Shown: positions 37,469 to 62,290 of the stretch, in pieces | How the letters are laid out: every line of letters starts with the position of its first letter | Position numbering within the stretch: the first letter of the stretch is position 1 | DNA from: Deltaproteobacteria bacterium | Lineage (GTDB): Bacteria; Myxococcota_A; UBA796; UBA9615 | Assembly (NCBI GenBank): GCA_023954745.1 | Contig: JAGSHC010000005.1 | Coordinates: 4,550-68,549, forward strand | DNA: 64,000 bases | Direction: 5' to 3' | Notes under the pieces: generated by a model | Databases searched by the model: none | Seen by the model: the letters and a program-made list of their open reading frames with translations, nothing else | Told to the model about the DNA's origin: nothing | Position numbers and translations under genes: made by a program

Positions 37469-37477
37469 GTCCGTCTC

Positions 37478-39929: not shown

Positions 39930-39943
39930 CTCTGCGCTCCGTC

Positions 39944-40643: not shown

Positions 40644-40684
40644 AACCGAGCGAGCGACGCCGACATCGCCCGCCAGGGAGCCGA

Positions 40685-40903: not shown

Positions 40904-40973
40904 TTGGGTGTCTCCTTGAGGTCGGTGGCGTTCATGTAGGGAGCGCGGCTCCCCCGGTTGTTGGTTTCGAGGA

Positions 40974-41159: not shown

Positions 41160-41216
41160 GGTCGAGGCTTCTCCCGCTCGATGCCTCGCGTTCAATCGTC
41201 GCGGCGGTCCGAGCAA

Positions 41217-41307
41217 GGGAAAGCTACCGGGGGGTTCGCGAGGGCGTCAACAAAATCACGCGAAACCCTTTGCATTTCGTTGACAAGTCGTTTGACAACA
41301 GAGGTAT
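41217..41307. promoter_or_regulatory. AT-rich putative promoter/leader region upstream of the flp2 pilin gene
   Basis: ~45% GC versus ~70% in the flanks. On the opposite strand it contains tandem TTGACA hexamers (TTGACAagtcgTTTGACA). I found no convincing sigma54 -24/-12 element. Confidence 0.3.
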
Positions 41308-41742: not shown

Positions 41743-41746
41743 TGGA

Positions 41747-42853
41747 TCAGGAGGGGGGGAGCGTAAACAGCCACACCCGACGCCAGGCTTGAGCCTCCGA
41801 GCCCCGCATGCCCTGGGACACAAACGCGACGGTGACTCGCCCCTCGCCGTCCTTGCCGACGTTGGGCTCGGAGTTGTTGACTGTGCCGGTCTGCAACGCG
41901 CGGGAGAGCTTGCTCGCAACGTCCACGATCATCAGGGGGTCCCCCGCGTTCGGGTCGTCCTTGACGGTGACGATGGAGCGCGAGTCCGGCGTCCACGCCG
42001 GACCGCGGCGCTCGTTGGGGATGACGTCCTCGAGGAGCTTCTGGGGGATTCCATCACCACTGGCGGCCGCCACGTAGAGGTCGAAGTGGGTGCGGTCCTC
42101 CTTGTGGTGATTGCTGTAGAAGGCGATCCGGCGGCCGTCGGGAGACCAGGACGGCTTAAGCTGCGTGGCCTTCCAGGCCGTGAGGGCCCGTGCCGTGGGC
42201 GACGCTGCGCTCACGTCATCGATGACGTGGATGTTGGCCCCATCCTCGTTGAGCGAGGAGTACGCCAGCGCGCTGCGGTTGGGCGCGAAGTCGGCGTAGA
42301 ACTCCAGGCCAGGGTCTGCCGTGAGGCGCCTCGGCGGCGCTTCGAGCTCGAAGATGTCGATGAGGTAGAGGTCCCCTTCCCCGGTGCGGGCCGAACTGAA
42401 CGCGAGGTAGCGCGAGTCGGAGGAAAAGACGGCGCCGCCCTCCTTCTCTTCGCTGCCGATGGGGGTGGTGACCCCCTTGATGTACAGGTCGAACTCGTCG
42501 TCGGCCCCGGAGCTGGCGAAGGCGTAGAGCCCACCTCGACTCGCCCACGAGAACTCGTGGTTTACCTGCTTGCGCTCCAGGAAACGGCCTCCGAGACCCG
42601 AGCTCCCTGACGGCGGGAGGACCTCCTCTTCCCGACCCGTGCGCGCCTCCACCATGAACAGCGACGTGACCTTCTCCCGGGGAAAGGTCACCTCATAGGC
42701 CACCTGGGCACCGTCGGGGGACCAGCGGGGATTGAGCGCGTTGCCCTCACGATCCGGAGAGAGCGGTGTCGCGGTCTGGCCTGCCACCGCGCCGGGGACG
42801 GGCAGCAGCAGCAGCGCAGAGAGCGACATCCAACCAAACAGCTTGCTCATCAT
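41747..42853 (-). CDS. Periplasmic TolB-like (PD40/WD40-like) beta-propeller protein
   Basis: Signal peptide MMSKLFGWMSLSALLLLPVPGAVAG and repeated WSPDG..(I/V)A(F/Y) blades. The start overlaps the stop of the upstream ABC ATPase gene. Confidence 0.6.
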   Translation of the reverse strand: MMSKLFGWMSLSALLLLPVPGAVAGQTATPLSPDREGNALNPRWSPDGAQVAYEVTFPREKVTSLFMVEARTGREEEVLPPSGSSGLGGRFLERKQVNHEFSWASRGGLYAFASSGADDEFDLYIKGVTTPIGSEEKEGGAVFSSDSRYLAFSSARTGEGDLYLIDIFELEAPPRRLTADPGLEFYADFAPNRSALAYSSLNEDGANIHVIDDVSAASPTARALTAWKATQLKPSWSPDGRRIAFYSNHHKEDRTHFDLYVAAASGDGIPQKLLEDVIPNERRGPAWTPDSRSIVTVKDDPNAGDPLMIVDVASKLSRALQTGTVNNSEPNVGKDGEGRVTVAFVSQGMRGSEAQAWRRVWLFTLPPS

Positions 42854-43821
42854 TCCTCCGAGGACACCGCGGTCCGTGCCCAGCACGCCACCCGATGCCC
42901 CACTCCGATGGGGGTCAGCTCCGGCTCGGTGGTCCGGCACCGCTCCCAGAGCGCATGGCCGGGCTCCACCTCGTGGCAGGAGCCGCGGTAGCGGCAACCT
43001 TCCGCTTCGTCGGTCCGGTCCGGAACCATGATCGCACGACTTCCGGGCGCAAGCGACGTGGAGAGGAGGCGCTCCGTGTACGGATGCCTCTTCCCGGGGT
43101 GCACGCTCGTATCCAGCTGCCTCGAGGGCATCTCTTCCACCACCTTGCCGCGATTCATCACCAACACACGGTCAGACACATATCGGACGACATCCAGCTC
43201 ATGGGAGATGAAGATCCACGCCTGTCCGGGCCGCCGAGCCTCCAGCATCACCTTGAGAACGTCAGCCTTCACGGACGCGTCGAGGCCCGCCGTCGGCTCG
43301 TCTGCGATGACGATGCGCGGCTCGGGAAGCAAGCACCGGGCAACGCCCACCCGCCGTCGCTCTCCGCCAGACAGCTCCCTCGGTCGCCGGTCCGCCCGGC
43401 CTTCGAGCCGGAAGCGAGCGAGAGTCTCGGCGATGATCGTGTCTTCGTTCCCCTTCTGGTCGGGGCGGTGGAGTCGCAAGGTCTCCCGGAGGTGTTCGCT
43501 GACGGTCATGCCGGGGTTCAGGGCGGCAGCCGCCGACTGGTAGATCATCTGGGCGCGGGTGCGGGCAAGGCGGAGCTGGCGCGCGTCCAGGGCGCCAAAG
43601 TCCTCGCCGAGGAACTCGATGGCCCCACCGTCGGGCTCGATGATGCGAAGCAGCAGCTTCCCGAGGGTGGTCTTGCCGGAGCCGGACTCCCCCACCAGCC
43701 CGAGGACCTCGCCCGAATGAAGCGTGAGGTCCACCCCATCGACCGCGCGAAGCCCTGGCGCGCCGTCGCTTCCAGCGAAGGTCTTGTGCAGACCGGTGGC
43801 GCAGAGCGCGATCTCTCTCAT
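42850..43821 (-). CDS. Oligo/dipeptide ABC transporter ATP-binding protein (DppF/OppF-like)
   Basis: GESGSGKTT, LSGGERRRV and a C-terminal oligopeptide-transporter extension with Cys residues. Confidence 0.8.
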   Translation of the reverse strand: MREIALCATGLHKTFAGSDGAPGLRAVDGVDLTLHSGEVLGLVGESGSGKTTLGKLLLRIIEPDGGAIEFLGEDFGALDARQLRLARTRAQMIYQSAAAALNPGMTVSEHLRETLRLHRPDQKGNEDTIIAETLARFRLEGRADRRPRELSGGERRRVGVARCLLPEPRIVIADEPTAGLDASVKADVLKVMLEARRPGQAWIFISHELDVVRYVSDRVLVMNRGKVVEEMPSRQLDTSVHPGKRHPYTERLLSTSLAPGSRAIMVPDRTDEAEGCRYRGSCHEVEPGHALWERCRTTEPELTPIGVGHRVACWARTAVSSEE

Positions 43822-44834
43822 CGGCGACTCAGGAAGCAGGCGACGCGATGTCCATCACCAAAGGGCACGAGCGGCGGGACCTCGCTGTAGCAGCGCTCCT
43901 GGTCGTGTTCGCGACCCACGGCCATGCGAGCGCAGCGCTTTACGTAAGGGCACGACGCGCCTGCGGGCCCGCTCGGGGCACGAAGAGAGGGAGGGGGCGG
44001 ACGCCCCTCCTCCAGCGCGAGGACCCGTGCCTGCAGCTCCCGCGAGTAGGGGTGCTCGCCCGGGCCTGGCTCGAAGAACGCGCTGCGGGGCCCGTCCTCC
44101 ACGAGCCGACCCTGATAGAGAACCAGGACCCGGTCCGCCATGTGTCGGACGACGGCGAAGTCGTGGGTGATCAGGAGGAGAGTGAGGCCCTGTTCGTCCT
44201 GGAGGCGAGCCAGCAGGTCCAGCACTTCGCGGCGGACGGACCAGTCGAGTCCAGTAGTTGGTTCGTCCGCCACCAGGAAGCGCGGTTCCGTCGCGAGGGC
44301 GACCGCCACGGCGACCCGTTGGGCCATGCCCCCCGACAGCTCGTGTGGATGAAGCTCGGCGACGGCGCGGGGGTTGGGCAGGGCCACCTGGGCAAGCCAG
44401 TGCTCGGCGCGCTCCCGGCGCTCTGCCGTGCTGGCCCGCGGCCGGGCGACCCGCACCGAGTCAGCGACCTGGCGCCCCACGGTTTGGTACGGGTCGAGTG
44501 CCTCGAGAGGGTGCTGGAAGACGTAGCCGGCCCAGCCCGGGCGTACGGTTGTCAGCGAGCGCCGGCGTCCCGGACGTCGGGGCGCCAAGGCTGCCTCCCC
44601 CTCCTCGGTCCACGCCGTGGCGCGCCCTTGCATCACACCTGGCTTCGCTGAGGTGATGCCCAGCAGCGAGCGCATGAGCACGGTCTTTCCGCTCCCCGAC
44701 TCCCCCACCAGCGCGACGACCTCGCCTCGGCCGAGGGAAAACGACACGTCATCGACGACCACGACCTCCTGGCCGTCGAGAGGATCGGTCACCCCGACGC
44801 TGAGGTTCTCGACGCGGAGTAGAGGGGTGCTCAT
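43818..44834 (-). CDS. Oligo/dipeptide ABC transporter ATP-binding protein (DppD/OppD-like)
   Basis: GESGSGKTV, LSGGMAQRV, ADEPTTGLD. The start was set at the ATG MSTPLL, which gives an ATGA overlap with the permease gene. Confidence 0.8.
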   Translation of the reverse strand: MSTPLLRVENLSVGVTDPLDGQEVVVVDDVSFSLGRGEVVALVGESGSGKTVLMRSLLGITSAKPGVMQGRATAWTEEGEAALAPRRPGRRRSLTTVRPGWAGYVFQHPLEALDPYQTVGRQVADSVRVARPRASTAERRERAEHWLAQVALPNPRAVAELHPHELSGGMAQRVAVAVALATEPRFLVADEPTTGLDWSVRREVLDLLARLQDEQGLTLLLITHDFAVVRHMADRVLVLYQGRLVEDGPRSAFFEPGPGEHPYSRELQARVLALEEGRPPPPSLRAPSGPAGASCPYVKRCARMAVGREHDQERCYSEVPPLVPFGDGHRVACFLSRR

Positions 44835-45742
44835 CCTCGGGTCTCCGCGAAGTGGCGTGCCAAGGCCAGGAGCCCACCGATCGATACGACGATGGCGAGG
44901 GTGGGGGCGAGGAGCGCCAGGGCGGCGCCCTCGTTGATGGCCCGCTCCAGCCCAAGAGCGATGTCCCACGGGGCCCAGCTGTCGGGCCGGGCCAGAGACC
45001 GCACGTGAATCACCTGGCTGCGCACATCGGAGAGGATGTTCCCCCACGAGGGACGCGGCGGCGGCACACCGTAGTCGCCGAGGTAGGAGAGGGACGTCTC
45101 CACGAGGAGGAACGAGGCGAAGAGCAGGCAGCACTGGCGAAGGACGAGTTCACGGCAGTTGGCCCACAGGATATGCACGAAGAGAATCCGGTGGTCGGGC
45201 AGCCCATGGGCTCGCGCTGCCTCGACGAACTGTGCGCGCTGAAAGGTGAGGACCCGCTCCGAGAGCTCCTGGGCGAGTTGGGGCACAAAGGAGATCGCCA
45301 CCAACAGCGCCAGCACGTACAGCCTCAGGCCGGCCCACTCGGCAGGGTCGGAGACCGACACCATGAAGATCGCGACGACCACCACGACCAAGACCAGCCG
45401 GGGCCACGCCCCGACGATCGTGAGACCCAGGCGTGCCACGGCCGTGGCCTTGGCCCGAGGCCAGAATCCGATGGCAGCTCCGAGGGGGACCCCTACCAGG
45501 AGGGCCACGAGCACGGCGAACAGCCCCGGAACGGCAAAGGCTTCAGTGGATTCGATCATGCGCACCAACAGGTCTCGCCCGAGCTGATCGGTGCCGAGAA
45601 GGTGGGCTGAGGACGGGCCCAATAGCGGTGCGTCGGTCGGCTCGGCGGGGTCCACGTGCACGAAGAGCGCGAGCAGGCGCACCCCGACCAGGATGGACAC
45701 GACGATGGCGCCCAGGACTGCGCTCAGGGAGCGAAGCCTCAT
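44831..45742 (-). CDS. ABC peptide transporter permease (DppC/OppC-like)
   Basis: A six-TM BPD_transp_1-type permease. It overlaps its neighbours by 4 nt. Confidence 0.75.
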   Translation of the reverse strand: MRLRSLSAVLGAIVVSILVGVRLLALFVHVDPAEPTDAPLLGPSSAHLLGTDQLGRDLLVRMIESTEAFAVPGLFAVLVALLVGVPLGAAIGFWPRAKATAVARLGLTIVGAWPRLVLVVVVVAIFMVSVSDPAEWAGLRLYVLALLVAISFVPQLAQELSERVLTFQRAQFVEAARAHGLPDHRILFVHILWANCRELVLRQCCLLFASFLLVETSLSYLGDYGVPPPRPSWGNILSDVRSQVIHVRSLARPDSWAPWDIALGLERAINEGAALALLAPTLAIVVSIGGLLALARHFAETRG

Positions 45743-46608
45743 GCAACGCCCCGAGAGAGGTCCCGCCGGTCCTTGCGTACCCGAGGGTCGACCAGCACGC
45801 GCAGCACATCGACGCCCAGCGACGCCCCGGCGACGAGGGCGGTCACGAACACTGTGATCGCGACGAGTAGCGGCAAGTCCGCGGTGTCCGCCGCCCGGTA
45901 CCCGATGAGACCCAGCCCCTGGATCCCCAGGACCATCTCCAGCACGAGCACGCCTCCGATGAGCCAGGCGGTCCGCGAGGCCGCGATCTGGGCCACCGGG
46001 AGCGCCATGTGAGCGAGCACGTGCTTCCAGACCGACGTGCCCCGGAGCCGCGCTGACTGGATGAAGTCGCGCTCACGCAGCCGCCGGTACTCGGAGTCCA
46101 GTCCAAGGAGCACGTCCGACAGCATGCCGTCTCCCATGGCGAGGATGACCACAGCGGCGAAGCTCTGGCGTGGTCCCTCGGGCGGCACGGCAAAGAGCAC
46201 CAGGGCGAGATAGCCGAGCAGGAACACGGGACAAAGGGAGAGGGCGTGGAGCGCCCCTCGGAGCACCCGGCCAAGACGACCGAGCCGGTCACCGATGGCA
46301 AGGACGAGCACCGCGCCGCTGCCCAGAGACAAGATCAGGGCCATGGCGATGAGGGGCAAGGATCGCAGCGCCCCCCGCCAGACCATCTCGTGCACCGGGA
46401 CTCCCCGATACGAGCGTCCGAGGTCCCCGGTGAACACGCCGCGCCAGAAGGACACAAGCCAGTCGAGGAACGAGGCGTTGCCGGTTTCGGCGGCCTTCTC
46501 GGCTGCTCCGGGCACCGTCCAGAGCAGCCCGCCGAACACGACAGAGCTGACGAACACCACGAGGGCGAAGGAGAGCGCTCGACGACCGAGGAGTCGGAGC
46601 GCGGGCAT
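45739..46608 (-). CDS. ABC peptide transporter permease (DppB/OppB-like)
   Basis: Permease with a C-terminal ...VLVDPRVR. The start was set at the ATG MPALRLLGRR. The longer ORF has a junk-like R/G-rich N-terminus. Confidence 0.65.
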   Translation of the reverse strand: MPALRLLGRRALSFALVVFVSSVVFGGLLWTVPGAAEKAAETGNASFLDWLVSFWRGVFTGDLGRSYRGVPVHEMVWRGALRSLPLIAMALILSLGSGAVLVLAIGDRLGRLGRVLRGALHALSLCPVFLLGYLALVLFAVPPEGPRQSFAAVVILAMGDGMLSDVLLGLDSEYRRLRERDFIQSARLRGTSVWKHVLAHMALPVAQIAASRTAWLIGGVLVLEMVLGIQGLGLIGYRAADTADLPLLVAITVFVTALVAGASLGVDVLRVLVDPRVRKDRRDLSRGVA

Positions 46609-46628
46609 CGAACTGCCCAAGGCCGTGG

Positions 46629-48185
46629 CTACCGGCCTCCGACGGCCGTCATCGTCCAGTCCGGGAACTGGGAGAAGTAATAGAACGGCTGGATGAAGAC
46701 CGATTCCACTTCGCGGCGCAGCGCGGTGTAGGAGCGAAGGCTCCAGAGGAAGACGTAGGGCGACTCCTGGGCCAGCTGCCGATGCACTTCCTGCATGTAG
46801 ACGACCTTCGCGGCGGGGTCCGTCTCGGCGATGGCCTTCTCGAGGAGAGAGTCCACCTCCTTGTTCGCGAAGCCCACGAAGTTCTGGGTGCCGTCGCTGT
46901 GGAAGAGGTCGTAGATGTTCTCGTTCTTGTCGAAGGACCAGCTGTCGAGCACCAGGTCGAAGTCGCGCTCGCTGAAGACCTTCTCGTTCCACACCGCCTT
47001 GTCCATGGCGACGGGGTCGGACGCGTCCAGACCGAAGCGGCGGAGCTGCGCCTGCAGGTTGAGCGCCACCGTCTGGCCCTGATCGCCCATGCCGGCGCGG
47101 TAGAAGATGCGCAGCTTCAGAGCCTCGCCCTTCATCTTCCACTGGGACTCGCCCTCGCGCTCGTAGCCCGCCGTCTCCATCAGCTGGGTGGCCTCGGCGA
47201 CGTCGTGATCGACGAGCTTCACCGACTCGGCGTGGTTGTAGTACTTGCTGGACGGAACGAACGGACCCGAGATGCGGTAGCCCTCGCCGATCAGCGCCAG
47301 CGAGGCGTCGAAGTCCACGGCCCGCGCGATGGCAGCCCGCACGGGGTCCTCCTTCAGGGCCGAGTTCTTGAAGTTCATGCCGAGGTACCACCACGACTTG
47401 CTCTGGTAGGGGATCAAGTCCGCGTTTCGACTGCGCTCGACCTCGGCGAGGTACTGCGAGGGCACATTCACCATCGCCTGGATGTAGCCGTACCCCAGCG
47501 AACTGACCTGCTGGTTCTTGTCCGGCATCTCGCGGACCTTGACCTCAGAGACGGCCGGCTTGCGCATGGCCTCGTTGTTCGCCTGGAGCGACCAGGTCCC
47601 GAGGTCCTGGGCCTTGAGGGTGTACGGACCGGAGGTGGTGGGCTTGAACCAGAAGGGGTGGGTGCGCGGCACCGCCGGAGTCTCGAAGCGATGGGCCGGG
47701 AGGATCTTGAAGTAGAACTTCTCCAGGGGCTCGAACTCGGGATCGTGGAACGTCAGCTTGACCGTGGTCTTCGCAGTGGCTTCGGCCTTCTTGATGAAGG
47801 CGAGGCGCGAGCGGTCGGGGCTGTCGGTCTTCGGGTTCTGGTAGGCCTTGATGCTGAAGACGACGTCTTCGGCAGTGATCGGCAGTCCATCCGACCAGCG
47901 CAGGCCCTCCTTGATGAAGACCTGCATCTCCATCTTGTCCTGCGAGAGGTCGTAGGCGTCGGCAAGGCGCGGCTCGGGGTAGCCGTCGTAGCCCGGGCCC
48001 CAGAGCGACTCGAAGAGCAGCTCGTTCAAGCGCGTCTCCGCCATCGACAGCTCATGGAGCGGATTCAGCGAATACGCGAGCTCGTCCTCGGCGAACTCAA
48101 AGCCTTCCGCACCGGCGTGCCCGGACGCAGAGAGCATGAGCCCCGCGAGAGCGAGGACGGTGGCTGAACGAAACGTGATGCTCAT
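46629..48185 (-). CDS. ABC transporter substrate-binding protein, family 5 (peptide/nickel)
   Basis: Signal peptide MSITFRSATVLALAGLMLSASGHAGA and the SBP_bac_5 architecture (~518 aa). Confidence 0.75.
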   Translation of the reverse strand: MSITFRSATVLALAGLMLSASGHAGAEGFEFAEDELAYSLNPLHELSMAETRLNELLFESLWGPGYDGYPEPRLADAYDLSQDKMEMQVFIKEGLRWSDGLPITAEDVVFSIKAYQNPKTDSPDRSRLAFIKKAEATAKTTVKLTFHDPEFEPLEKFYFKILPAHRFETPAVPRTHPFWFKPTTSGPYTLKAQDLGTWSLQANNEAMRKPAVSEVKVREMPDKNQQVSSLGYGYIQAMVNVPSQYLAEVERSRNADLIPYQSKSWWYLGMNFKNSALKEDPVRAAIARAVDFDASLALIGEGYRISGPFVPSSKYYNHAESVKLVDHDVAEATQLMETAGYEREGESQWKMKGEALKLRIFYRAGMGDQGQTVALNLQAQLRRFGLDASDPVAMDKAVWNEKVFSERDFDLVLDSWSFDKNENIYDLFHSDGTQNFVGFANKEVDSLLEKAIAETDPAAKVVYMQEVHRQLAQESPYVFLWSLRSYTALRREVESVFIQPFYYFSQFPDWTMTAVGGR

Positions 48186-48267: not shown

Positions 48268-49797
48268 CTACTGCTGACTGGTCTTCCCCTGGACGCCAAT
48301 CCCGCTGGCCGCGTCCAGTTGGCCCAACTGGTAGGCGGCACCCGCAAGACCTGGGAACCGCTCGACCAGTGGATGGAGGTATTCCCGGCCCACGCCGGGG
48401 CGTCGTCCCGCGCTGTGCACGCCCCCCAGACGCACCAGAAACCCTGCGTCGTTTCGATGGGAGATTCGCGTCATGTCGTCCCCTGCCCCACTCGACGCCA
48501 CGTCGAGACTTCGTTCCCCCAGCCTCAAGGCCACGACGGGGGCGCCTGCGTCGGAGACCTCGATCATGCGTCGCCTGAGGAGTTGGTCAGCGAACCTTCG
48601 AGACAGCTCGAGGTCGCGTACGAGGCTCTTTCCGTCAGGCGAGCTGGCGAGCCCCTCGAGGCTCTGGCCCAGGCTTTGGTCGAGGCGAGCCTCGAAGCGC
48701 AGGACACGGTCGACGTCCGCGGGCGTGAGTCCCTCCGTGAGGCGCTCCGCGGGAACTGCCGCCGCAACGCGGGCGAGCAGCGAGGACCCCCCGGGGAGCC
48801 CCCAGCTCGCTCGGAGATCCGCGCCGTCGAGCCAGGCCCCCCCGAACCAGGTGAGGGCGGGTTCGACCGTTCCCTTCGCCGGGGTTGGTGGGGCGAGGGT
48901 CGGCGCGGCCTCACCCCAGGCATCGTGGGCGATGGAGACGAGCTCTTGCCCAGCTTCGCCAGCGGCCCCGGCATGGGTCAGGACGCTGAGGAGCTCCGCG
49001 CGCAGGCGGGCCCTCGAGACCTCCGGATCCCACCAGGAGATCGTGAACTCCAGCCCCGCTGCGGCGTCCTCGCCTAGAGGATCGACGTAATCGGGGCTGG
49101 CGGTGTCGAGGGTGCTGGAGGCCGGCTGTTCGCCAGCAGCGAGCGTCGCGCCGGCCGCCAGCCGTTCGGCCAGGGGGCTGGGAAGACCAGCCGGTGGGGC
49201 GGTCCCCGAGGAGCGGGCCTCGAGCAGCGCAAGGAGCGCCGTCCCCGGAGCTGGGTCGACTCCTTCCCCAGGCGTCCAGGCGCGGGCTCGTTTCAGCGAG
49301 GCTGAAGTCCCCTCCCCGTTGGGGGCAAGGGCTTGCAAGGACAGCGCTGCGAGGAGGGGCTCGTAGGCACCCACTCGAATGCGGTCCGCGCGCAAGGCGC
49401 GGTACTCGACCCCCTCGGGGACGATGCGCTCCTGCAGGTCCCGGGCGGCGACCAGGACGTCCGCGCGGGCGAGGGCGACGCGAGCCAGGCCGAGCTGCAC
49501 TGCGGGGTGGGTGGAGTCCGGGGACGCGAGGAACGCAGCCTCTGCCTGGGAGAGCTCGCCGCGGAACAGGGCCAGCCACCCTTCGCCGCCCGGTCCGTCA
49601 ATGAGGCCTGCGACTGCGTCGGGCTGGGATGGCACGGCGGCGTACCAGGTGCCTGCCACGACAGATGCGAGGGCGTCCCGGTCTTCGCTGGCCACGGCGG
49701 GCGGGGCGCCCTCGTCGGAGGGGCCACAGCCGGCGGTGACGAGACCGAGAGTAGCGAGGAGGAGTGCCGGTCCGCGCCTTGCGCGGAGCCGCGTCAA
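48268..49797 (-). CDS. Ala-rich hypothetical lipoprotein
   Basis: Lipobox LLLATLGLVTAGC. A ~500-aa A/L/G-rich helical protein with a 4-nt overlap with the kinase gene upstream. Confidence 0.45.
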   Translation of the reverse strand: MTRLRARRGPALLLATLGLVTAGCGPSDEGAPPAVASEDRDALASVVAGTWYAAVPSQPDAVAGLIDGPGGEGWLALFRGELSQAEAAFLASPDSTHPAVQLGLARVALARADVLVAARDLQERIVPEGVEYRALRADRIRVGAYEPLLAALSLQALAPNGEGTSASLKRARAWTPGEGVDPAPGTALLALLEARSSGTAPPAGLPSPLAERLAAGATLAAGEQPASSTLDTASPDYVDPLGEDAAAGLEFTISWWDPEVSRARLRAELLSVLTHAGAAGEAGQELVSIAHDAWGEAAPTLAPPTPAKGTVEPALTWFGGAWLDGADLRASWGLPGGSSLLARVAAAVPAERLTEGLTPADVDRVLRFEARLDQSLGQSLEGLASSPDGKSLVRDLELSRRFADQLLRRRMIEVSDAGAPVVALRLGERSLDVASSGAGDDMTRISHRNDAGFLVRLGGVHSAGRRPGVGREYLHPLVERFPGLAGAAYQLGQLDAASGIGVQGKTSQQ

Positions 49798-52700
49798 AGG
49801 GCTCCCTCGGACAGATCCTGGAGTGCAGCGATGGCGTCCTCGGCTCGGGTCGCCTCACGGGGCCGGTACGTGTTGTTGGCCATGTGGCGGTAGCGCTTCC
49901 ACACCGCGATCGCGTCGGACAGGTAGTCCAGGTTCTCGGTGCCCTGGTACAGGCCCTTGTAGGACTTGGCCTGGATCTCCCAGATCTTGAGCTGTCGGTC
50001 GGTCCGTGATCGCGCGGGGATGTCCTGCGCATGGAGTTCCGCGACCCGAGAGGTCTCCAGGGCGTCTTCGTAGCGCCCCTGGCGGAGGTGGCACTTGCTC
50101 ATCTCCAGGTTCCACTGCGGGTCTGCGTAGTTCCCGGGCTGTCCGAGCACCTCGCCGGCGAGGTCGCAGTGCTTTGCGCCATCGCCGGTCGCTTCGAACT
50201 GCGCGAGGAGCACGGCGCGGCTGTTCTCGTAGGAAGACGCCGAGGGGGCAATGGCTTCGAGCTGCTCGATGGCGTCTGCCTCGAGGCGGCCACGGCGCGC
50301 GGCGTCGCTGTAGTCGTCGATCACCTGCTGTGCGCTCGGCGCGTCGACCATGGCGACGGCGTCGTCGGAGGTCGCGCTGTCGCTCGATCCGGAGTCCTCG
50401 TCGCCGTAGGGGGAGCGCACGTCGCTCGAGGCAGTGTCCCAGTCATCGCTGGACGACGAGCCTGAGTCGCTGCTCGATGAGGCGGTGGCGTCGCTGCGGG
50501 GCGAGGAGCCACTGGAACGCGACGAACCCGACGAACCGCTAGACCCGGACGAACTCGACGAGCCACCGGTGTATCGAGGCTCTGCGGCGCGGGACGAGGA
50601 ACCAGAGTCCGAGCTCGCCGATCGGCTACTGCTCGATCCCGTGTCGCGCGAAGACGAACGCGACGTGGTGTCCCGGGCGGACGAACTCGAGCTTCGGGAG
50701 TCGGAGGCCCTTGCCGAGGAACTCGAACTGCGCGCGCTCGCCCCCCCTGTGTTCGACGTCGAAGACCGGCTGCTCGAGGCCGAGGCGCGCGAGTCCGAGG
50801 AGCGGCTGCCGGAGCTGCTCCGGTCGCTGGTGTTGGACCGCGACGACGCCACGGCCGCGGGGGTCGGGTCGGGGTCTCGCTCCGGCGTGGGCGCTGCGGC
50901 CTCGGCGTCAGAGCCGGCGTCGGCCACCGCGTCTCCGCTGTCGCCTGATGCCTCGGACTCCGAGGCGCCCTCGGCGCTGGCGGAGTCCTGGGCCTTTGCG
51001 TCGGCCTCTTCCGTGGATGCAGCATCCTGACCAGCGAGAGGCTCCGCGCCCGTCTCGAGATCACCCGTCGCGATGGCATCCCCACCCGGGTCACTGCCCG
51101 GGAGCATCAGCCACACGACCGCGCCGAGCAGCAAGACCACGACGGCCACGGCTACGTACACGGCCATGTTGCTGCCGCCCTCGTCCCAGTCGTCGTACCC
51201 GTCGTCGTACCCGTCGTCCGCTCCGTCCACGTCCATCATCACCGGTTCGGGCGAGCTGTTGGCGGCTCTAGCCACCGGAGCAGCCTGGACCGGTGCTGGC
51301 TTCGGCGGAGGCGGCGCAGCGGCAACGGGCGGCGGTGGCGGTGCCGCCACCGGCTTCGGCTTGATGGGAGGAGTCGGGACGCCCGCGGGAGGAATGGTGG
51401 GCTTGCTGGCGGCCATCGACGCGGTTGCGGCCACGTTCGCCCCAGCCGCCCCAGCCGCCCCAGCCGCCGCCGCAGCTGCGGCCTTCGCCTTGTCCCTCTT
51501 CTTCTGGCGACGTGATCGCTTGCCCTTCGGAGCCGGTGCCCCGGGATTCGTGGCCCGCGCAGCGGGGGACTGAGAGGCAGCTGCGAGCTCGGCCCGGGCC
51601 TGAAGTCCCGTCGCCGAGGGGGGGGCTGCCACGTCGTCGGAGACCGTCTTCGCCTGGGTCGGGGTGCGGGGAAGAGGCGGCTGAGGGGGAGCCGTGGGCG
51701 CGTTCCCCGGCTCCGTCTTCGCCATGTTGGTGAGAGAGACGGGTGGCGGCGGCGCTGCCTTCAGGTTCTTCTTGGACTCGGTGTCCTTGAGCACCAGGGC
51801 CTTCAGAGCCGCGACGGACTCCGCAAACGCGACCTCCTGTGCGGGCGTCTCCTCCACAGTGCTCGCCGGCTCGGGGGGCGCGGCGTCGGGAAGGTCAACA
51901 GGCTCGTCGGGCTCGTCGACGTTGGCCGTCGCGAGGTTTGTTCCCTCGGAGAGGCGCCCGGCGGCGTCCCGGGCGAGCTGCGTGATCTTCGCCATGTACT
52001 CGCGGAGGTGCGACGGCGAGAGGTCGACCTTCATCTGTTCCGCGACGAAGCGCAGGTCCTTGAGGACGAGGCCCATGCTCTGGTACCGAAGCTCGCGCTT
52101 CCGAGCGAGCATCCGCAGCAGAATCATCCGAAGTCCGGGCTCGATGCCCTTCTTGGTGATGTCCTTGAGCCCGACGTTGAGGTCCTTGATGGAGTTGATG
52201 ACCGTCAGGTAGTTGGTGCCATCGACCAGCTTCTCGAGCGTCAACATCTCCCAGAAGACGGCGCCGAGGCTGAAGATGTCGCTCGCGGGCGTGAGGTTCT
52301 GCTCTCCGCTCGCCTGCTCGGGCGACATGTAGTTGGCGGTGCCCTTGACCACCGAGCCGGTGTTGCTGGTGTCGCCCACGCGCGCAATACCGAAGTCCGT
52401 CAGCTTGACGATCCCGCGATTGCTGATGAGCACGTTGCTCGGCTTGATGTCCCGGTGGATGAGCCGGATCGGCTTGCCGTCCATGTCCGTCGCCGAGTGG
52501 GCGAAGTCCAGGGCTTCACAAAGAGACAGGGCGATGTGGAAGAAGATCGACAGCGGGAATCGGAGGTCGTGGTCCCGGTGCACCTGGATCGCCTGTGCAA
52601 CATCGATCCCGTCGATGTACTCCATGACGATGTAGTAGTCGTCGTCGATCCGGCGAAGGTCGTTTACTCGCACGATGTTGGTGTGCTGGAGCTGCCCGAG

Positions 52701-52898
52701 CAGCTTCGCCTCTTGGACCAACTGACGAATGAAGTACTGGTCGAGGGCGAAGCCGCCGTGAAGCCGCTTCAGGGCCACGAGGGTCTTGAAGTCCTCGTCG
52801 CCTTCACGCTCGGCGAGGAAGACTTCGGCCATCCCGCCCTCGCCGATCTTTCTCAGCAGGGTGAACTCGCCGCGCTTCTGAGGGAACGTCAACATCAC
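49794..52898 (-). CDS. Membrane Ser/Thr protein kinase with a P/A-rich linker, TM, long Ser-rich and TPR-like extracytoplasmic region (1034 aa)
   Basis: Hanks kinase motifs GEGGMAEVF, VALKRL, HRDIKPSNVL, DFGIA and SPEQ. The TM is MAVYVAVAVVVLLLGAVVWLMLPG. It has a >150-aa stretch of S/R/D/T simple sequence and a C-terminal helical repeat domain. Confidence 0.8.
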   Translation of the reverse strand: MMLTFPQKRGEFTLLRKIGEGGMAEVFLAEREGDEDFKTLVALKRLHGGFALDQYFIRQLVQEAKLLGQLQHTNIVRVNDLRRIDDDYYIVMEYIDGIDVAQAIQVHRDHDLRFPLSIFFHIALSLCEALDFAHSATDMDGKPIRLIHRDIKPSNVLISNRGIVKLTDFGIARVGDTSNTGSVVKGTANYMSPEQASGEQNLTPASDIFSLGAVFWEMLTLEKLVDGTNYLTVINSIKDLNVGLKDITKKGIEPGLRMILLRMLARKRELRYQSMGLVLKDLRFVAEQMKVDLSPSHLREYMAKITQLARDAAGRLSEGTNLATANVDEPDEPVDLPDAAPPEPASTVEETPAQEVAFAESVAALKALVLKDTESKKNLKAAPPPPVSLTNMAKTEPGNAPTAPPQPPLPRTPTQAKTVSDDVAAPPSATGLQARAELAAASQSPAARATNPGAPAPKGKRSRRQKKRDKAKAAAAAAAGAAGAAGANVAATASMAASKPTIPPAGVPTPPIKPKPVAAPPPPPVAAAPPPPKPAPVQAAPVARAANSSPEPVMMDVDGADDGYDDGYDDWDEGGSNMAVYVAVAVVVLLLGAVVWLMLPGSDPGGDAIATGDLETGAEPLAGQDAASTEEADAKAQDSASAEGASESEASGDSGDAVADAGSDAEAAAPTPERDPDPTPAAVASSRSNTSDRSSSGSRSSDSRASASSSRSSTSNTGGASARSSSSSARASDSRSSSSSARDTTSRSSSRDTGSSSSRSASSDSGSSSRAAEPRYTGGSSSSSGSSGSSGSSRSSGSSPRSDATASSSSDSGSSSSDDWDTASSDVRSPYGDEDSGSSDSATSDDAVAMVDAPSAQQVIDDYSDAARRGRLEADAIEQLEAIAPSASSYENSRAVLLAQFEATGDGAKHCDLAGEVLGQPGNYADPQWNLEMSKCHLRQGRYEDALETSRVAELHAQDIPARSRTDRQLKIWEIQAKSYKGLYQGTENLDYLSDAIAVWKRYRHMANNTYRPREATRAEDAIAALQDLSEGAL

Positions 52899-55108
52899 AG
52901 CACCTCATCCGACGGGGCCGCATGACCCCGAGGAAGTGTATCGGAGCGCACGTACTCGCTGCCCGCCAACCCCTGGATCGACGCCACCTGGGTCGTGGAG
53001 TTCCCAAAAAGCGCGGCGCTGGGGCCGTACTTCTTGACCAAGAGCAGCGCGAGGATCGCGAGCAGAAGGACAATCACGATGATCAGTGCCCCGATGACAT
53101 TCGGTGGCACGCCCTTGCGGCGTCGCTTGGGCGTCGTCCTACGCTTCCCGCCCCGCCCCTTCGTCTTGCGCCGCTTCGTCGGGCGCTTTCGCGCCCTCTT
53201 GGGACGCCGCTTCGGCTTCCTTGGAGCCGCTGGTGGGGCCTGCCAGGAGCCGGAGGCGCGCGCGACCGCCGCTGCTTCGGGCCCCATCGTCGGCTCCGGA
53301 ACCGCCTCGAGCGCGTTCGCGGTTTGGGTCGGCGGCGGGGGGCCGGCGTAGAAACGGGTGGGGTCGTCGAGATCGGTGCGCGGTGCGCTCGTGCGGGCTG
53401 CGCTGTGCGGGACCGCTGGCGCGGGCCCACTCGGACGAGACTGGGGAGGAGCCGACACGCCCGCGATCTGCGGCATGGGGCCTCCGGGGAGCGGACGTGT
53501 CCTGTCCTCATCGCCTCCCGTGACCGCACGCATCTCTCCCGTGCCGTACACCCCGGATTGAGCCGGGGTGGGGCCTGCGTAGACCCGTGTGCGATCAATG
53601 TCGTCCCAGTCGCTCGCCGGGGCAGGTCGAGCAATGGAGGCGTGGCTTGCCGCCTGTGGCCGCGCCGGCGGGGGCGTGGGGGCGTCGGCCGCGAGCGCCG
53701 CCGGGTTCGGGACAGGCGTGCCGCCGACGGGGGTTCCGCTGATGAACTGCGAACTCATTGGAGGCGGAGGCGCGGCGAGGGTCGCGGCGTCCAGGGGGTC
53801 GCGCGAGCCGGGGCGCTGCGGGCGGGGGGCGGGGGCCTCCTTGGGCGGGAGGGCGACCAGCCCTTGCGCCGTCGCGGTAGGAAGTTGCTGCACCTCGCCC
53901 GTCGACTCCAATGCCGCGATGGCGATGTAGGAGTCGAGCAGGTCCTTCCGAACCGCCTGGGTCACCGGGCCGCTGCGTTCCAGGCGCTGCTGGGGCACGG
54001 GGGTCGGCGGTGTCGCAGGGCCCACTGCTCCCAGTGGCTGCGATGTGGGCGGAGGAGGAGGAGGAGGAGGAGGAGCCACTGGCTCCGGCGGGGCCGGGGT
54101 GGGGCCGAGTTGCCGGGCGGCGCCCTCGTTGGGGAGTGCGGTCAGCCCGACGTTGCTCAGAGTCACACGACCCGGGGCGCGGCCCAGGATGCCCATGAGG
54201 CGGCCGACGTACGCTCGGATTCGGTGCCAGGAGAGGTCCACCTTGAGGCGGTCCGCCACGAACTGCAGGTCGTTCCGGACGTTGTCCATCTCGGAGTACC
54301 GCGACGCGGCGTCCGAGGAGAGCATCTTCGCGATGACGACACGCAGGCCGGGCTCTACCCCGAGCTGGGCGAGTTCTTCGACGGAGACGCGGCGCTCGCG
54401 CACCTGGTGGATCGCCTTGAGGTAGTTGTCCCCGTCGATGAGGGGGCGGCCCGTCAACATCTCGTAGAAGACGGAGCCCAAGGAGTACACGTCCGAGGCT
54501 CCAGTGAGCCGCTCCTCTCCGAAGGCCTGCTCTGGGGACATGTAGTTGGCGGTCCCCTGGACGAGGCCCCCGGTCACTGAGCCGTCCCCCACGTGGGCGA
54601 TGCCGAAGTCCGTCAGCTTCACGATGCCACGTCGGCTGAGCATCACGTTGCTGGGCTTGATGTCGCGGTGGATCAGAGGCGTCGGATTGCCGGACGGGTC
54701 CACGGCGTTGTGGGCGTAGGCGAGCGCCTCCGTGAGGCTCAGGGCGACGTGGAAGAAGAAGGGGCGGGGAATCCGGGTCTTGCGGGTGCGGTGGACCTTG
54801 ATGACGGCGGCGAGATCGATGCCGTCCACGAACTCCATGACCACGTAGTACTCGTCGCCGATGCGGCGCAGGTCGAAGACCTTGACGATGTTGTTGTGCT
54901 CGAGCTGTCCGAGCAGCCGCGCTTCCCGGACCAACTGGCGGATGAAGTAGCTGTCCATGGCGAGGCCACGGTGCAGTCGCTTGAGCGCCACGCGCGTGCG
55001 GAAGCCGTCGTCCCCCAGGCGCTCTGCCAGGAAGACGTCTGCCATTCCCCCTTCACCGATCTTGTGAAGGAGGCGGAATTCACCCCGCGTTCCGAGCGCT
55101 TCGGTCAT
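52895..55108 (-). CDS. Membrane Ser/Thr protein kinase, paralog of the downstream kinase, with a Pro-rich region and a C-terminal TM (737 aa)
   Basis: The kinase domain is highly similar to the neighbour (GEGGMADVF, HRDIKPSNVM, DFGIA). It has a poly-Pro tract, the basic cluster RKPKRRPKRARKRPTKRRKTKGRGGKRR, and then a TM VIGALIIVIVLLLAILALLLV. Confidence 0.8.
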   Translation of the reverse strand: MTEALGTRGEFRLLHKIGEGGMADVFLAERLGDDGFRTRVALKRLHRGLAMDSYFIRQLVREARLLGQLEHNNIVKVFDLRRIGDEYYVVMEFVDGIDLAAVIKVHRTRKTRIPRPFFFHVALSLTEALAYAHNAVDPSGNPTPLIHRDIKPSNVMLSRRGIVKLTDFGIAHVGDGSVTGGLVQGTANYMSPEQAFGEERLTGASDVYSLGSVFYEMLTGRPLIDGDNYLKAIHQVRERRVSVEELAQLGVEPGLRVVIAKMLSSDAASRYSEMDNVRNDLQFVADRLKVDLSWHRIRAYVGRLMGILGRAPGRVTLSNVGLTALPNEGAARQLGPTPAPPEPVAPPPPPPPPPTSQPLGAVGPATPPTPVPQQRLERSGPVTQAVRKDLLDSYIAIAALESTGEVQQLPTATAQGLVALPPKEAPAPRPQRPGSRDPLDAATLAAPPPPMSSQFISGTPVGGTPVPNPAALAADAPTPPPARPQAASHASIARPAPASDWDDIDRTRVYAGPTPAQSGVYGTGEMRAVTGGDEDRTRPLPGGPMPQIAGVSAPPQSRPSGPAPAVPHSAARTSAPRTDLDDPTRFYAGPPPPTQTANALEAVPEPTMGPEAAAVARASGSWQAPPAAPRKPKRRPKRARKRPTKRRKTKGRGGKRRTTPKRRRKGVPPNVIGALIIVIVLLLAILALLLVKKYGPSAALFGNSTTQVASIQGLAGSEYVRSDTLPRGHAAPSDEVL

Positions 55109-55132: not shown

Positions 55133-55642
55133 TTACTCGCCCTGGCGCAGAACGCCGGTCCCAGTGTTGGTCTCGCCCAGGCTCGTATCGACGAGATTGC
55201 CGACGTCCTCGACATCAATGGTGTCTGGGTAGAGCGTGGTGTCCACTTGGAGCGTCCCCCGGTCGTACAGGACCGCGTCCCGCCAGATGTGGTAGCCCGG
55301 CTTGTAGATGGTGACTTCGTAGTAGTACCCCGGCGGCATCCCCAGGTCGGTGCCCGCTTCATCAGACACGTGGTCGACGACCCAGCGGCCGCCCTCGGTG
55401 GTCACTGCGAGCCCCCGGGTGCCGTCAGGCAGGGTCTCCGTCGTGCCACGCCCGCGCTCCATACTTTCGTCTGGTGCTTGAGGAAGGATCGATATCTTCG
55501 CGAAAGGAATGGGCTTTCCCTCGGCGTCGAGCACGAGGCCGGACAGCATGTCTGGCTCCTTGCCCTTGCCCTTGCCGCCGCCCGTCGTCACACAGCCAGC
55601 GAGAAGCAACGCCGCCGCCACTGTGACGATGAGGGAGGACAT
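55133..55642 (-). CDS. Small lipoprotein with a carboxypeptidase-regulatory-like beta domain
   Basis: Lipobox AAALLLAGC, then GLVLDAEGKPIPFAKISI... The start was set at the internal ATG MSSLIV. Confidence 0.4.
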   Translation of the reverse strand: MSSLIVTVAAALLLAGCVTTGGGKGKGKEPDMLSGLVLDAEGKPIPFAKISILPQAPDESMERGRGTTETLPDGTRGLAVTTEGGRWVVDHVSDEAGTDLGMPPGYYYEVTIYKPGYHIWRDAVLYDRGTLQVDTTLYPDTIDVEDVGNLVDTSLGETNTGTGVLRQGE

Positions 55643-55748
55643 CGCTGCTTTGCGTCTGGTCACGTGGGTCTCCTTGCGCTGACGTCGATATAGCAAAGCC
55701 CGGGGGAGCGGTCGCTCCTACCCGGGCCGTGCGCACCGCGAGGGTGAA

Positions 55749-56123
55749 TCACTGAGGACGTGGAAGCACGCCGTTGTCGTCCTCGGTCGGGTCCAGGGAT
55801 GCACCGTTGGGTGCGTAGTCGCTGCACCCAGCGGCCGTCGTCAGCTGACTGAGGTTGTCGGCGCACTGCAGGCGCACGGTGCGCTGGTCTTCCACCGGCT
55901 GGATTCCGATCGTCGCAGTGACGCGGGCCTGGCACGTGGTGATGTAGTCGTTGGCGTCGTCGTAGCCAAAGTCGGCCCACAGGGCCTCCCAGTGCTCCAG
56001 ACACGAGTCGACGTAGCGGGCGTTCTCCACGCAGAGCGTCTGGCAGACCGGCTGACAGCCGGAGAACAGCGCAGCACCGCCGATGGCGGCAAGCGTGACT
56101 AGGAACCGGGACAGAACGCGCAT
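55749..56123 (-). CDS. Small Cys-rich lipoprotein
   Basis: MRVLSRFLVTLAAIGGAALFSGC, then eight more Cys in ~100 aa. The start was set at the internal ATG. Confidence 0.4.
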   Translation of the reverse strand: MRVLSRFLVTLAAIGGAALFSGCQPVCQTLCVENARYVDSCLEHWEALWADFGYDDANDYITTCQARVTATIGIQPVEDQRTVRLQCADNLSQLTTAAGCSDYAPNGASLDPTEDDNGVLPRPQ

Positions 56124-56225
56124 CGAGCCCTCCTGCTCAGCAACGTTGGACATTCGCGCGGGCGAAGCCCGAGGCCTGAATTCTGGCACGTTGGCTCAGC
56201 GCAGTACACCGAGACCGCGACCATA

Positions 56226-60949: not shown

Positions 60950-62290
60950 CTACGCCTCGGGAGGGATGCACTCGCGAGCACATGCCTCGATGCGGTCGGC
61001 CCAGGTGTCCACGAGCCCCCTCGCGGGACCCTCTACCTGGATGCGCAGGACGGGCTCGGTCCCCGAGTACCGCAGAAGTCGACGGGCGCCGCCGGCGTGC
61101 AAGGCGGCATCTGCTTCCTCGAGGAGCGCCACGAGGGGCGGCAAGGAGTCCAGGGCCGGGCGGGCCCCGACGCGGACTGAGCGCTTGCTGGACGGGTCGC
61201 GGGGGATGGCGCCCAGGAGGGCGCTCAAGGGCTCGTCGGCAAGCCGTGCCTGGCGGAGGACCTCCAGCGCCACCCGAATACCGTCCCCGGTGGGGCACAG
61301 GTGAGGCGTCAGGACGTGGCCGGAACTCTCCCCTCCAATGACTGCTCCGCTGGTCTCCATCAGCGCAGCGACGTTGCGGTCCCCCACGGCGGAGCGGAGC
61401 AGACTCACTCCTCGATCGGCGAGGTAGCGCTCGAGCCCCGAGTTGGTGGTGACGGTGCCCACGACGACGTCTCCGGCCAGCTGGCCGGCGCGAAGGAGTC
61501 CGTCGGCGAGGAATCCGAGGATCGGGTCGCCGTCGTGGACCACGCCGCGCTCGTCGACGAGGGTCACGCGGTCGCCGTCGCCGTCGACGGACACTCCCGC
61601 CCAGGCTCCGTGCTTCACGACGGCCGCCGCCAGCTCTTCGGGGTGGACTGCTCCGCAGCCGTCGTTGATGTTCCGGCCCGTGGGCGGCGGGCTCGACCGG
61701 CGCACCTCGGCCCCTGCCGCTGAGAGCGAGAGAGGAAGGGCCTCAAAGGCCGCTCCCGCCGCGCTGTCAGCGACGACGAGTCGACCATCGAGTCGACCTC
61801 CTCCAGCGAAGGCGCCCGCGAGTGACTCGAGGTAGTCCGGAAGAACCTTGGCGCCCTTCACGGCTCCAAATCGGTCGGTCTCGCGGACCTCGCCCAGGCG
61901 GGCTTCAGCTGCTCGCTGTACGGCGTCGGGCGTCTTGCTGCCGTCGGCGGCGAAGAGCTTCAACCCGTTGTCGAACCACGGGTTGTGGCTCGCGGTGATC
62001 ATCACTCCGCCGAGGAGCCCGTCCGTTCGCGCCATCCACCAGCTGAGAGCTGGGGTGGGCACGACCCCGAGATCGATCACGTCGCAACCCGCGGACGTGA
62101 GGCCAGCGGCCACCACCGAGGCGAGCATCGGGCCGGACTCCCGCGTGTCTCGGGCGATCGCCACCGCGCCGTCCCCCAGCATCGAGCGGACGGTCACGCC
62201 GAAGGCGGTGGCGAGGGCCAGAGCTCCCTCGGGGGACAGCGGGCCCACTCCGGCCTTGCCTCGTACTCCATCGGTCCCAAACAGGCTCAC
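60950..62290 (-). CDS. glmM: Phosphoglucosamine mutase GlmM
   Basis: MSLFGTDGVRGKAG and the active-site TASHNP. Confidence 0.85.
   Translation of the reverse strand: MSLFGTDGVRGKAGVGPLSPEGALALATAFGVTVRSMLGDGAVAIARDTRESGPMLASVVAAGLTSAGCDVIDLGVVPTPALSWWMARTDGLLGGVMITASHNPWFDNGLKLFAADGSKTPDAVQRAAEARLGEVRETDRFGAVKGAKVLPDYLESLAGAFAGGGRLDGRLVVADSAAGAAFEALPLSLSAAGAEVRRSSPPPTGRNINDGCGAVHPEELAAAVVKHGAWAGVSVDGDGDRVTLVDERGVVHDGDPILGFLADGLLRAGQLAGDVVVGTVTTNSGLERYLADRGVSLLRSAVGDRNVAALMETSGAVIGGESSGHVLTPHLCPTGDGIRVALEVLRQARLADEPLSALLGAIPRDPSSKRSVRVGARPALDSLPPLVALLEEADAALHAGGARRLLRYSGTEPVLRIQVEGPARGLVDTWADRIEACARECIPPEA

Follow-up and report, generated by a model that had tools for sequence, protein, structure and literature searches.

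Two tandem genes for membrane Hanks-type Ser/Thr kinases lie in a 64-kb stretch of contig JAGSHC010000005.1 from a Deltaproteobacteria bacterium (hereafter the window, meaning the whole stretch at its full length), beside the genes of an ATP-binding cassette (ABC) importer and on the same strand as a Tad locus encoding two FHA domain proteins. The locus raises the question of what such kinases are wired to; to our knowledge, hardly any bacterial Hanks kinase has a known stimulus or partner. An earlier note on this DNA had called the pair the obvious writers for the two FHA readers of the Tad locus. A comparison covering about 100 related loci gave that proposal no support and ties the kinase family to the importer module instead. 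We conclude that K2 (52895-55108; 737 amino acids, without a sensor domain) and K1 (49794-52898; 1034 amino acids from a GTG start, with a periplasmic TPR-like domain) probably serve as signalling head to a conserved operon of envelope and transport genes and are not dedicated Tad components. All features of the kinase genes, the importer module and the Tad locus given below lie on the minus strand.

The feature that made a wide comparison possible is the C-terminal domain (CTD) of K1, a predicted periplasmic, TPR-like domain of ~170 amino acids (49797-50318) that defines the protein family. K1 runs from its kinase domain (52080-52862) through a Pro/Ala-rich juxtamembrane region of ~265 amino acids, within which lies a basic patch (51483-51530), to an acidic DDGYDD patch (51174-51233) and a transmembrane (TM) helix (residues 578-599; 51102-51167), followed by an acidic linker stretch (50856-51098), a Ser/Arg/Asp-rich part of the linker (the Ser tract; residues 682-846; 50361-50855) and the CTD. 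One strong hydrophobic helix was found outside the kinase domain in all K1 and K2 orthologues examined, the exception being the truncated K2 of locus L013, which has none. A second candidate TM helix in K1 (Ala/Gly-rich residues 473-497), which would place the CTD in the cytoplasm, was rejected as too weakly hydrophobic and missing from all orthologues. The CTD carries two invariant Cys residues, and its conservation reaches the last residue (alignment A1). It matched no Pfam family, and a PDB sequence search with its profile, or with the neighbouring lipoprotein Lipo509, returned nothing significant. The AlphaFold2 model is an all-helical repeat (pLDDT 92) whose best PDB matches in Foldseek are TPR proteins (MamA, the kinesin light chain TPR domain, LGN, PcrH and BamD; TM-scores 0.5-0.69, E ≥ 1e-3), and on this modelling the domain can be assigned with confidence to the TPR-like fold class. 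The succession proposed earlier for K1, with a TM helix, a Ser/Arg/Asp tract of more than 150 amino acids and a TPR-like ectodomain, is thus borne out, the fold coming from AlphaFold2 and Foldseek.

Searches with the kinase domain reached no distant contexts, identity falling from at least 65% directly to at most 43% without intermediates. A profile of the CTD (alignment A1, with K1 as seed), searched against 1.84 billion cluster representatives, matched 168 of them, 129 at E ≤ 1e-10, and retrieved the K1 of the window itself as P0148 (1033 amino acids). Approximately 73 family members are full length (700-1260 amino acids), with the CTD at the extreme C-terminus and the profile match stopping a few residues short of the end. 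An N-terminal Pkinase domain was present in all nine full-length members scanned, and in 73 of the 76 members of at least 700 amino acids a low-complexity linker comes after a predicted TM helix; in some unrelated members this linker, too, is rich in Ser and Arg. Short "standalone" CTD proteins that appear in databases were discounted as real genes; they are located at contig ends and represent truncated K1 calls. Judged by sequence, the CTD family is widespread and combines a cytoplasmic kinase or pseudokinase, a TM helix, a disordered periplasmic tether and a TPR-like CTD. Neither this family nor the operon it heads was described in the literature searched, and both are apparently undescribed.

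Four catalytic residues (the beta3 Lys, the HRD Asp, the catalytic Asn and the DFG Asp) were checked in 73 full-length members. All four are kept in only six, comprising four from the window's clade plus P0157 and P0179, and none is kept in 60, in which the corresponding motifs typically read VVVRR, HLAL.P and G.[YF]G. Since these 60 members lack all four residues, most distant members should be unable to phosphorylate, and the family as read from its motifs consists mostly of pseudokinases, with K1 in a catalytically intact minority. The C-lobe of the pseudokinase members (proteins P0163-P0297; loci L018-L020 and L029-L100) is highly conserved (RALSLNPRHRYQRAFVLREDLRGLMAGYSF). The family thereby offers a natural contrast between catalytically intact and dead versions of one receptor.

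The distant genomic contexts comprise four contigs reached via family proteins and dozens of the 80 loci that a metagenome scan around the solute-binding protein (SBP) returned. They share an operon of a single kinase or pseudokinase, a CarboxypepD_reg-like (CarbReg-like) protein, a protein X, a family-5 SBP (SBP_bac_5), two permeases, two ATPases, a protein Y and a PD40 propeller. A family member heads the operon in every sampled distant locus that is long enough, and the PD40 gene is terminal. Orthology of the module is supported by tblastn and hhalign; X is homologous to Lipo509 of the window (hhalign probability 99.6%, E 2.4e-24) and shares its lipobox Cys. The relationship is remote, identity to the window in the four contigs being ~40% for the SBP, 30-39% for the kinase domain and 27-32% for the CTD. 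No Tad genes follow the propeller in any of the 20 distant loci readable past it (at least 2 kb in 18 of these, less than 1 kb in L019 and L020), and in the 18 longer ones tblastn found no match to Flp, prepilin peptidase, TadE/G, RcpC, secretin or CpaF. Genes after the operon are on the opposite strand in L019 and L020. Pfam searches of ten open reading frames (ORFs) downstream of distant operons gave nothing related to Tad; eight had matches (an ACE-like peptidase, a trypsin-like protease, two SLT transglycosylases, a MopE-repeat protein, an ABC exporter, a sulfatase and a deaminase) and two had none. The earlier note had itself named kinases conserved beside the dpp transporter in genomes lacking the Tad locus as evidence against its proposal, and at locus level this is the arrangement in all 20 distant loci. 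Because the Tad neighbour and the K2 duplicate are restricted to the window's clade, the conserved partner of the family is the transporter module.

A side observation in five of the distant loci is a conserved soluble kinase of ~490 amino acids, encoded convergently on the minus strand just past the PD40 gene (L054:17956-19416, L060:12095-13579, L063:17703-19457, L069:17098-18579 and L077:18487-19998). Its HRD motif is replaced by HCD, the Lys is kept and DFG usually so, and it carries a C-terminal domain without an assigned family. This protein may be a partner for the pseudokinase.

For interaction partners, ligand, direction of signalling and the relationship of K1 to K2 we infer the following scheme. 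The tethered TPR-like domain would sense the state of periplasmic partners, namely the liganded binding protein, the lipoprotein or the propeller, and would pass that state across the membrane. Signalling would be non-catalytic in most lineages of the family; in the window's clade it would proceed via phosphorylation, K1 acting as sensor and K2, itself sensor-less, as partner or amplifier, much like PknB and PknA. Mycobacteria provide precedents for kinase genes beside ABC genes in PknF-Rv1747 (an FHA-bearing exporter) and PknD-PstS2 (a phosphate system). The likeness is that a Hanks kinase gene adjoins ABC genes, and in the case of PknD an SBP gene; those pairs differ from the present locus in transporter class and sensor domain and share no multi-gene envelope module. 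The best functional analogy for a kinase reporting the state of a binding protein is PknG-GlnH-GlnX of Actinobacteria, in which a binding protein controls a TPR-bearing kinase and the FHA protein GarA/OdhI reads the output (PMC6069109, PMC8546545, PMC9769921). There too the kinase gene lies beside that of an SBP and a TPR couples the signal to the kinase. PknG, however, is soluble, with a cytoplasmic TPR and GlnX as membrane relay, whereas K1 crosses the membrane itself and carries a periplasmic TPR-like domain; the locus described here also has a family-5 binding protein with a complete importer, and its kinase family is mostly pseudokinases. If the transporter-coupled reading is true, the module would be a widespread one that wires a membrane kinase or pseudokinase to a binding-protein-dependent importer, paralleling PknG-GlnH-GlnX in one bitopic protein. 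The locus in any case offers a sensor domain without a Pfam model together with a fixed set of candidate periplasmic partners.

All of the module components except Y occur in the window (CarbReg-like protein, X lipoprotein, SBP_bac_5, two permeases, two ATPases and PD40), within a one-strand gene run from ~58.7 kb down to 25.9 kb in the order IscS, MnmA, small Cys-rich lipoprotein, CarbReg-like protein, K2, K1, Lipo509, SBP, permeases, ATPases, PD40, DUF192 and Tad genes. Lipo509 (48268-49797), the family X member, is a helical-repeat, TPR-like lipoprotein with a conserved lipobox Cys, and its TTG start overlaps the K1 stop as TTGA. The NCBI copy of this protein (P0136, KDA24_02025, 475 amino acids, 100% identical) starts 34 codons later and so has no signal peptide; the TTG start and lipobox Cys are kept in orthologues. 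By Pfam, the five genes at 42850-48185 encode a family-5 SBP-dependent importer of the Opp/Dpp/Nik type, comprising the SBP (46629-48185), two permeases (45739-46602 and 44831-45742) and two ATPases (43818-44834 and 42850-43821), with 4-nucleotide overlaps at gene junctions. The last conserved module gene (41747-42853, start approximate) encodes a TolB-like propeller of the PD40/Tricorn type (Pfam PD40 E 2.6e-23; NCBIfam TolB propeller 85 bits against a cutoff of 343). Upstream, 24 nucleotides from K2, lies the gene for a CarbReg-like lipoprotein with an LLAGC lipobox (55133-55696), whose match to PF13620 (E 1.4e-5) is under the gathering score and whose homologue directly follows the kinase in distant loci. 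The gene upstream of it encodes a small Cys-rich lipoprotein with an LFSGC lipobox (55749-56189) that is conserved in the window's clade only, and its membership of the module is uncertain. A scan of 40-59 kb was uninformative, with no promoter-like sites and fewer terminator-like sites than the shuffled expectation.

The neighbouring locus invites a different answer. A DUF192 gene and then the Tad locus occupy 27159-41928 (identified by Pfam; given as context and not as part of the module), with two Flp-type pilins, a prepilin peptidase, TadE/G-like proteins, RcpC, a secretin, an ATPase fusing FHA and T2SSE domains (FHA-CpaF; 31651-33531), TadB/C, an FHA protein with a TM helix (FHA-TM; 28353-29954) and, at the end, a second T2SSE/CpaF-like ATPase without FHA (27159-28352). 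The Kil system is defined by a CpaF-type ATPase with N-terminal FHA and several other FHA proteins, and is described as a single-ATPase system (PMC8460266). The FHA-CpaF fusion and a further FHA protein, both hallmarks of Kil, are found here, in agreement with the earlier description of the locus as Tad/Kil-like, and a second, FHA-less T2SSE ATPase is present as well. Further resemblances to Kil of Myxococcus xanthus (PMC8460266) include nearby beta-propellers, Flp pilin, pseudopilins, prepilin peptidase, secretin and RcpC; here, however, the genes form one contiguous cluster, and the M. xanthus kil clusters are without a true kinase.

On this basis K1 and K2 could write phosphothreonine marks that are read by FHA-CpaF and FHA-TM, gating a Kil-like Tad killing machine in the way that PpkA and Fha1 gate the T6SS (type VI secretion system), with the transporter and lipoproteins as accessory sensors like TagQRST. 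We regard this as a serious alternative, albeit an unlikely one. The Kil authors predict an upstream phospho-signalling cascade and name no kinase (PMC8460266), FHA-CpaF keeps the canonical phosphothreonine-binding residues (GR...SRxH...STNG), and the genes from 58.7 kb to 25.9 kb are on a single strand. The second FHA protein has a Pro-rich linker and then, immediately ahead of a TM helix, a polybasic patch (KKRKKKGRGKGKGKK), mirroring the juxtamembrane design of K2; its FHA domain, however, is partly degenerate, with SRQQ and GTVNH replacing SRxH and STNG. The model behind the earlier proposal is the TagQRST-PpkA-PppA-Fha1 threonine phosphorylation pathway of the T6SS in Pseudomonas aeruginosa (PMC7817224; cited by PMC8460266), which likewise joins a membrane Hanks kinase with a periplasmic domain, a lipoprotein, an ABC-type complex and an FHA-gated, envelope-spanning machine. 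The window differs from it in having no vWA domain, TagR-like protein or PppA-type phosphatase; in place of TagST there is a binding-protein-dependent importer, and it is this importer, not a secretion machine, that is the kinase family's conserved neighbour. No PP2C phosphatase, moreover, was found among the ~65 ORFs scanned across the window. Nor are the kinases "next to" the Tad locus other than loosely, since nine genes and 8.7 kb separate them from the first pilin gene (Lipo509, five importer genes, PD40, DUF192 and a second small Flp-like ORF), the distance to the two FHA genes is 16-20 kb, and a gap of ~260 nucleotides between DUF192 and the pilin genes leaves room for a separate promoter.

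How the two answers compare within the window's own clade was assessed with the 12 loci obtained by scanning species-representative genomes with the CTD, to which further metagenome contigs were added. The 12 loci are from marine metagenome-assembled genomes (MAGs) labelled Deltaproteobacteria, Proteobacteria or, mostly, "uncultured Rickettsiales"; a separate protein match, P0013, is labelled Myxococcota. From IscS to the Tad genes, clade loci of sufficient length agree in gene order, and two kinases together with Tad genes are present in all five metagenome loci that extend far enough. Several points here weigh against a purely transporter-linked role. The clade order departs from the distant one, the CarbReg-like gene being upstream of the kinases, Y absent and DUF192 added. 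Tad genes follow the module in 14 of the 15 clade loci reaching far enough, such that a clade-specific functional fusion with Tad is possible. No NCBIfam equivalog assigns the importer a substrate, its best models (Opp/Nik/Gsi/Dpp) scoring far under their cutoffs. The clade is also one of two branches keeping the catalytic residues and the sole one with a duplicated kinase, which suits kinases that write for FHA proteins. On the other hand, because the housekeeping genes IscS and MnmA are collinear as well, clade synteny cannot separate functional linkage from shared ancestry, and is weak evidence either way. The Tara Red Sea MAG RS363 (L007) has no Tad gene within 1.35 kb (L007:19200-20558), and the other catalytically intact branch (P0157, P0179; L017, L039) shows no Tad genes in its readable sequence. 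Together with the 20 distant loci, these observations count against the kinases as dedicated FHA writers and favour the transporter module as their conserved partner. The 1.35 kb that follows DUF192 in L007 has no similarity to Tad genes or to the rest of the window, and represents either an insertion or a break in the adjacency of module and Tad locus.

Intermediate positions were also considered. That K1 and K2, as the head of the transport operon, also signal to the FHA proteins of the Kil-like machine next door, in this clade only, is a reasonable idea but seems to us unlikely. A stronger version would have this marine, Myxococcota-like clade place an ancient sensing and import module directly upstream of a Kil-like killing machine, keep or restore catalysis and duplicate the kinase, thereby coupling killing and feeding; K1 would sense prey-released peptides or envelope fragments in the periplasm, and phosphothreonine marks made by K1 and K2 would recruit the FHA domain of the CpaF/KilF-like ATPase, all from one super-operon. 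We consider this version rather doubtful. Should it or the dedicated-writer alternative be true, K1 and K2 would be the first concrete candidates for the missing upstream kinase of the phospho-trigger suspected in Kil-type Tad systems.

The kinase genes themselves have the coordinates and strand given earlier for them, and they are indeed paralogous, tandem, bitopic Hanks kinases with diverged tails, one of which bears the TPR-like ectodomain. Both pass the Pfam Pkinase gathering cutoff of 31.7 bits (K1, 139.9 bits, E 1.3e-40; K2, 137.5 bits, E 7.1e-40) and retain a complete set of catalytic motifs (G-loop GEGGMAEV, VALK, QEAK, HRDIKPSN, DFG and SPE), so that by motif both are catalytically intact. 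Their catalytic domains, described earlier as nearly identical, are clear paralogues and not near-copies, with 60% identity and 77% similarity over 309 amino acids including a 35-residue extension. The genes overlap by four nucleotides as had been noted, except that the overlap is GTGA and not ATGA; the junction reads CTG-TGA-TG, with the GTG start of K1 overlapping the K2 stop, and the next-codon ATG would be an alternative K1 start with a 1-nucleotide overlap. Six of seven orthologous genome loci with both genes keep a 4-nucleotide overlap (five ATGA, one GTGA), and translational coupling of K2 and K1 is thus a conserved feature. Coupling extends along the module in locus L015, where 4-nucleotide overlaps link K1, the lipoprotein, SBP, both permeases and both ATPases, with a 1-nucleotide overlap into the PD40 gene and an 8-nucleotide gap after K2.

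A tandem of this kind recalls mycobacterial pknA-pknB, which lie in the fhaA-fhaB-pstP-rodA-pbpA operon. In both cases adjacent genes encode paralogous single-pass Hanks kinases, one with an extracytoplasmic sensor and the other with a short tail, and FHA genes occur in the wider neighbourhood. On this likeness K1 and K2 might, as PknA/PknB-type kinases, regulate growth or the envelope in general, and their position beside a transporter and a Tad locus would have no functional meaning; the extreme conservation of their kinase domains would be expected of hub kinases, and the best NCBIfam model for both is PknB/Stk1 (NF033483). That model, however, covers the kinase domain only, at 214 and 232 bits for K1 and K2 against a cutoff of 450, and the Pfam scan found no PASTA repeats in either protein. 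The sensor is instead a TPR-like helical domain on a ~260-residue tether, an ABC importer, lipoproteins and a propeller make up the partners, and there are no PP2C (PstP) or cell-wall synthesis genes. A translationally coupled linkage to the module that persists in dozens of loci, down to ~40% SBP identity, is not a chance adjacency, and a family made up mostly of pseudokinases fits a hub kinase poorly. We therefore judge a general regulatory role improbable and retain the transport operon as the setting of the pair.

The second kinase gene, the K2 duplicate, is confined to the window's clade. Identity between orthologous kinase domains is 75-98%, compared with ~60% between the K1 and K2 paralogues, which indicates that the duplication is old within the clade and that both copies are strongly constrained. 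In L015, for example, identity to the window is 97-98% for the kinase domains, 88% for the SBP, 74% for MnmA and 52% for IscS, the kinase domains being the most conserved segments of the locus. Two contigs of MAG binchicken_co46_645 (L010 and L011; 240 kb and 280 kb) have identical maps across the 20-kb locus, reflecting either a large duplication or redundancy of binning or assembly.

K2 differs from K1 outside the catalytic region. Its kinase domain (54287-55075) is followed by a Pro-rich region that includes nine consecutive prolines (PPPPPPPPP, residues 346-354; 54047-54073), a polybasic cluster (residues 629-666; 53111-53224), the only TM helix of the protein (residues 671-691; 53036-53098) and an outside tail of 45 amino acids (52898-53032) that is not conserved between species. 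The polybasic cluster, immediately N-terminal to the helix, has 24 Lys or Arg among its 38 residues and no Asp or Glu, and K2 orthologues keep both cluster and single helix. The poly-Pro run, basic cluster, C-terminal TM helix and short outside tail reported earlier are accordingly all present. From these features K2 appears to be a clade-specific duplicate of the kinase domain, anchored by the polybasic patch and TM helix.

The tether that separates the K1 membrane helix from the CTD raises a question of its own, as its Ser-rich part had been read as simple AGC/TCG DNA repeats that could be hypervariable. In the tract (165 amino acids; 48% Ser, 10% Arg and 10% Asp) all six codons for Ser are in use (TCG 32, AGC 19, TCC 16, AGT 6, TCT 4 and TCA 2), the longest DNA stretch repeated exactly within it measures 13 nucleotides, it contains no perfect triplet run of three or more copies, and Tandem Repeats Finder (TRF) detected just weak short arrays with scores of at most 50. 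The simple-repeat description is therefore incorrect, and with it the proposed mechanism of hypervariability. The linker nonetheless evolves much faster than its flanks, the tract being 44-48% identical to that of relatives in which the kinase domain is 96-97% and the CTD 76-84% identical. The comparison of repeat lengths suggested earlier gave tracts of 171-207 amino acids in these relatives against 165 in K1 of the window. More distant orthologues have linkers of 172-261 amino acids that are still low in complexity and built from other units, which according to species are SSRDTY, PDPTPRSTYRE or EPEPE..DDW repeats. Between the closely related MAGs of L008 and L010 the K2 tails are nearly identical, and the K1 linkers expand DTSSSRDTYR in one and EPDPTPRSTYR in the other.

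Such differences might suggest a contingency locus, in which slippage-prone DNA varies the length of the tether within a population. The tract lengths, the low identity beside almost invariant kinase domains and the species-specific repeat units fit this idea. So does the behaviour of assemblies, in which at least eight related contigs break inside or just upstream of the Ser-rich part of K1 and none of the protein database's 12 entries for close K1 orthologues exceeds 490 amino acids, under half of K1, a pattern consistent with DNA that assembles poorly and may be heterogeneous. High-GC, low-complexity DNA could by itself cause such breaks, however, and the mixed codons, short repeats and low TRF scores are not those of slippage-prone DNA; the pattern suits a disordered linker whose composition and length are under selection. 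A contingency locus is thus very improbable, and the tract reads as a disordered tether selected for length and composition, not as a slippage switch.

Two conserved islands, EPRY(T/V)GG and DDW..R(S/D)PY, lie inside the variable linker (window 50361-50560, K1 residues ~775-835). W-acidic peptides are ligands of the kinesin light chain TPR domains. By analogy, the W-acidic motif of the K1 linker might dock on the CTD or on Lipo509, an idea that applies at the level of the clade, given that the DDW motif is found almost exclusively there; for the same reason DDW was rejected as a family-wide TPR ligand.

Other genes of the window were recorded in passing. Upstream of the one-strand gene run is a CdaA (DAC domain)-CdaR (YbbR)-GlmM trio, the conserved cyclic di-AMP synthase operon (window 60950-63998, minus strand), followed by Nnr (YjeF), IscS and MnmA. 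Two adjacent rhomboid-family genes, the second a weak match, are divergent from a LexA gene (window 12973-15334). Finally, MopE-type Cu-binding repeat proteins are encoded near the module in the window (23199-24728, minus strand) and in the unrelated distant loci L017 (L017:2582-5689) and L055 (L055:9815-11644), and two of these three proteins carry FG-GAP repeats.

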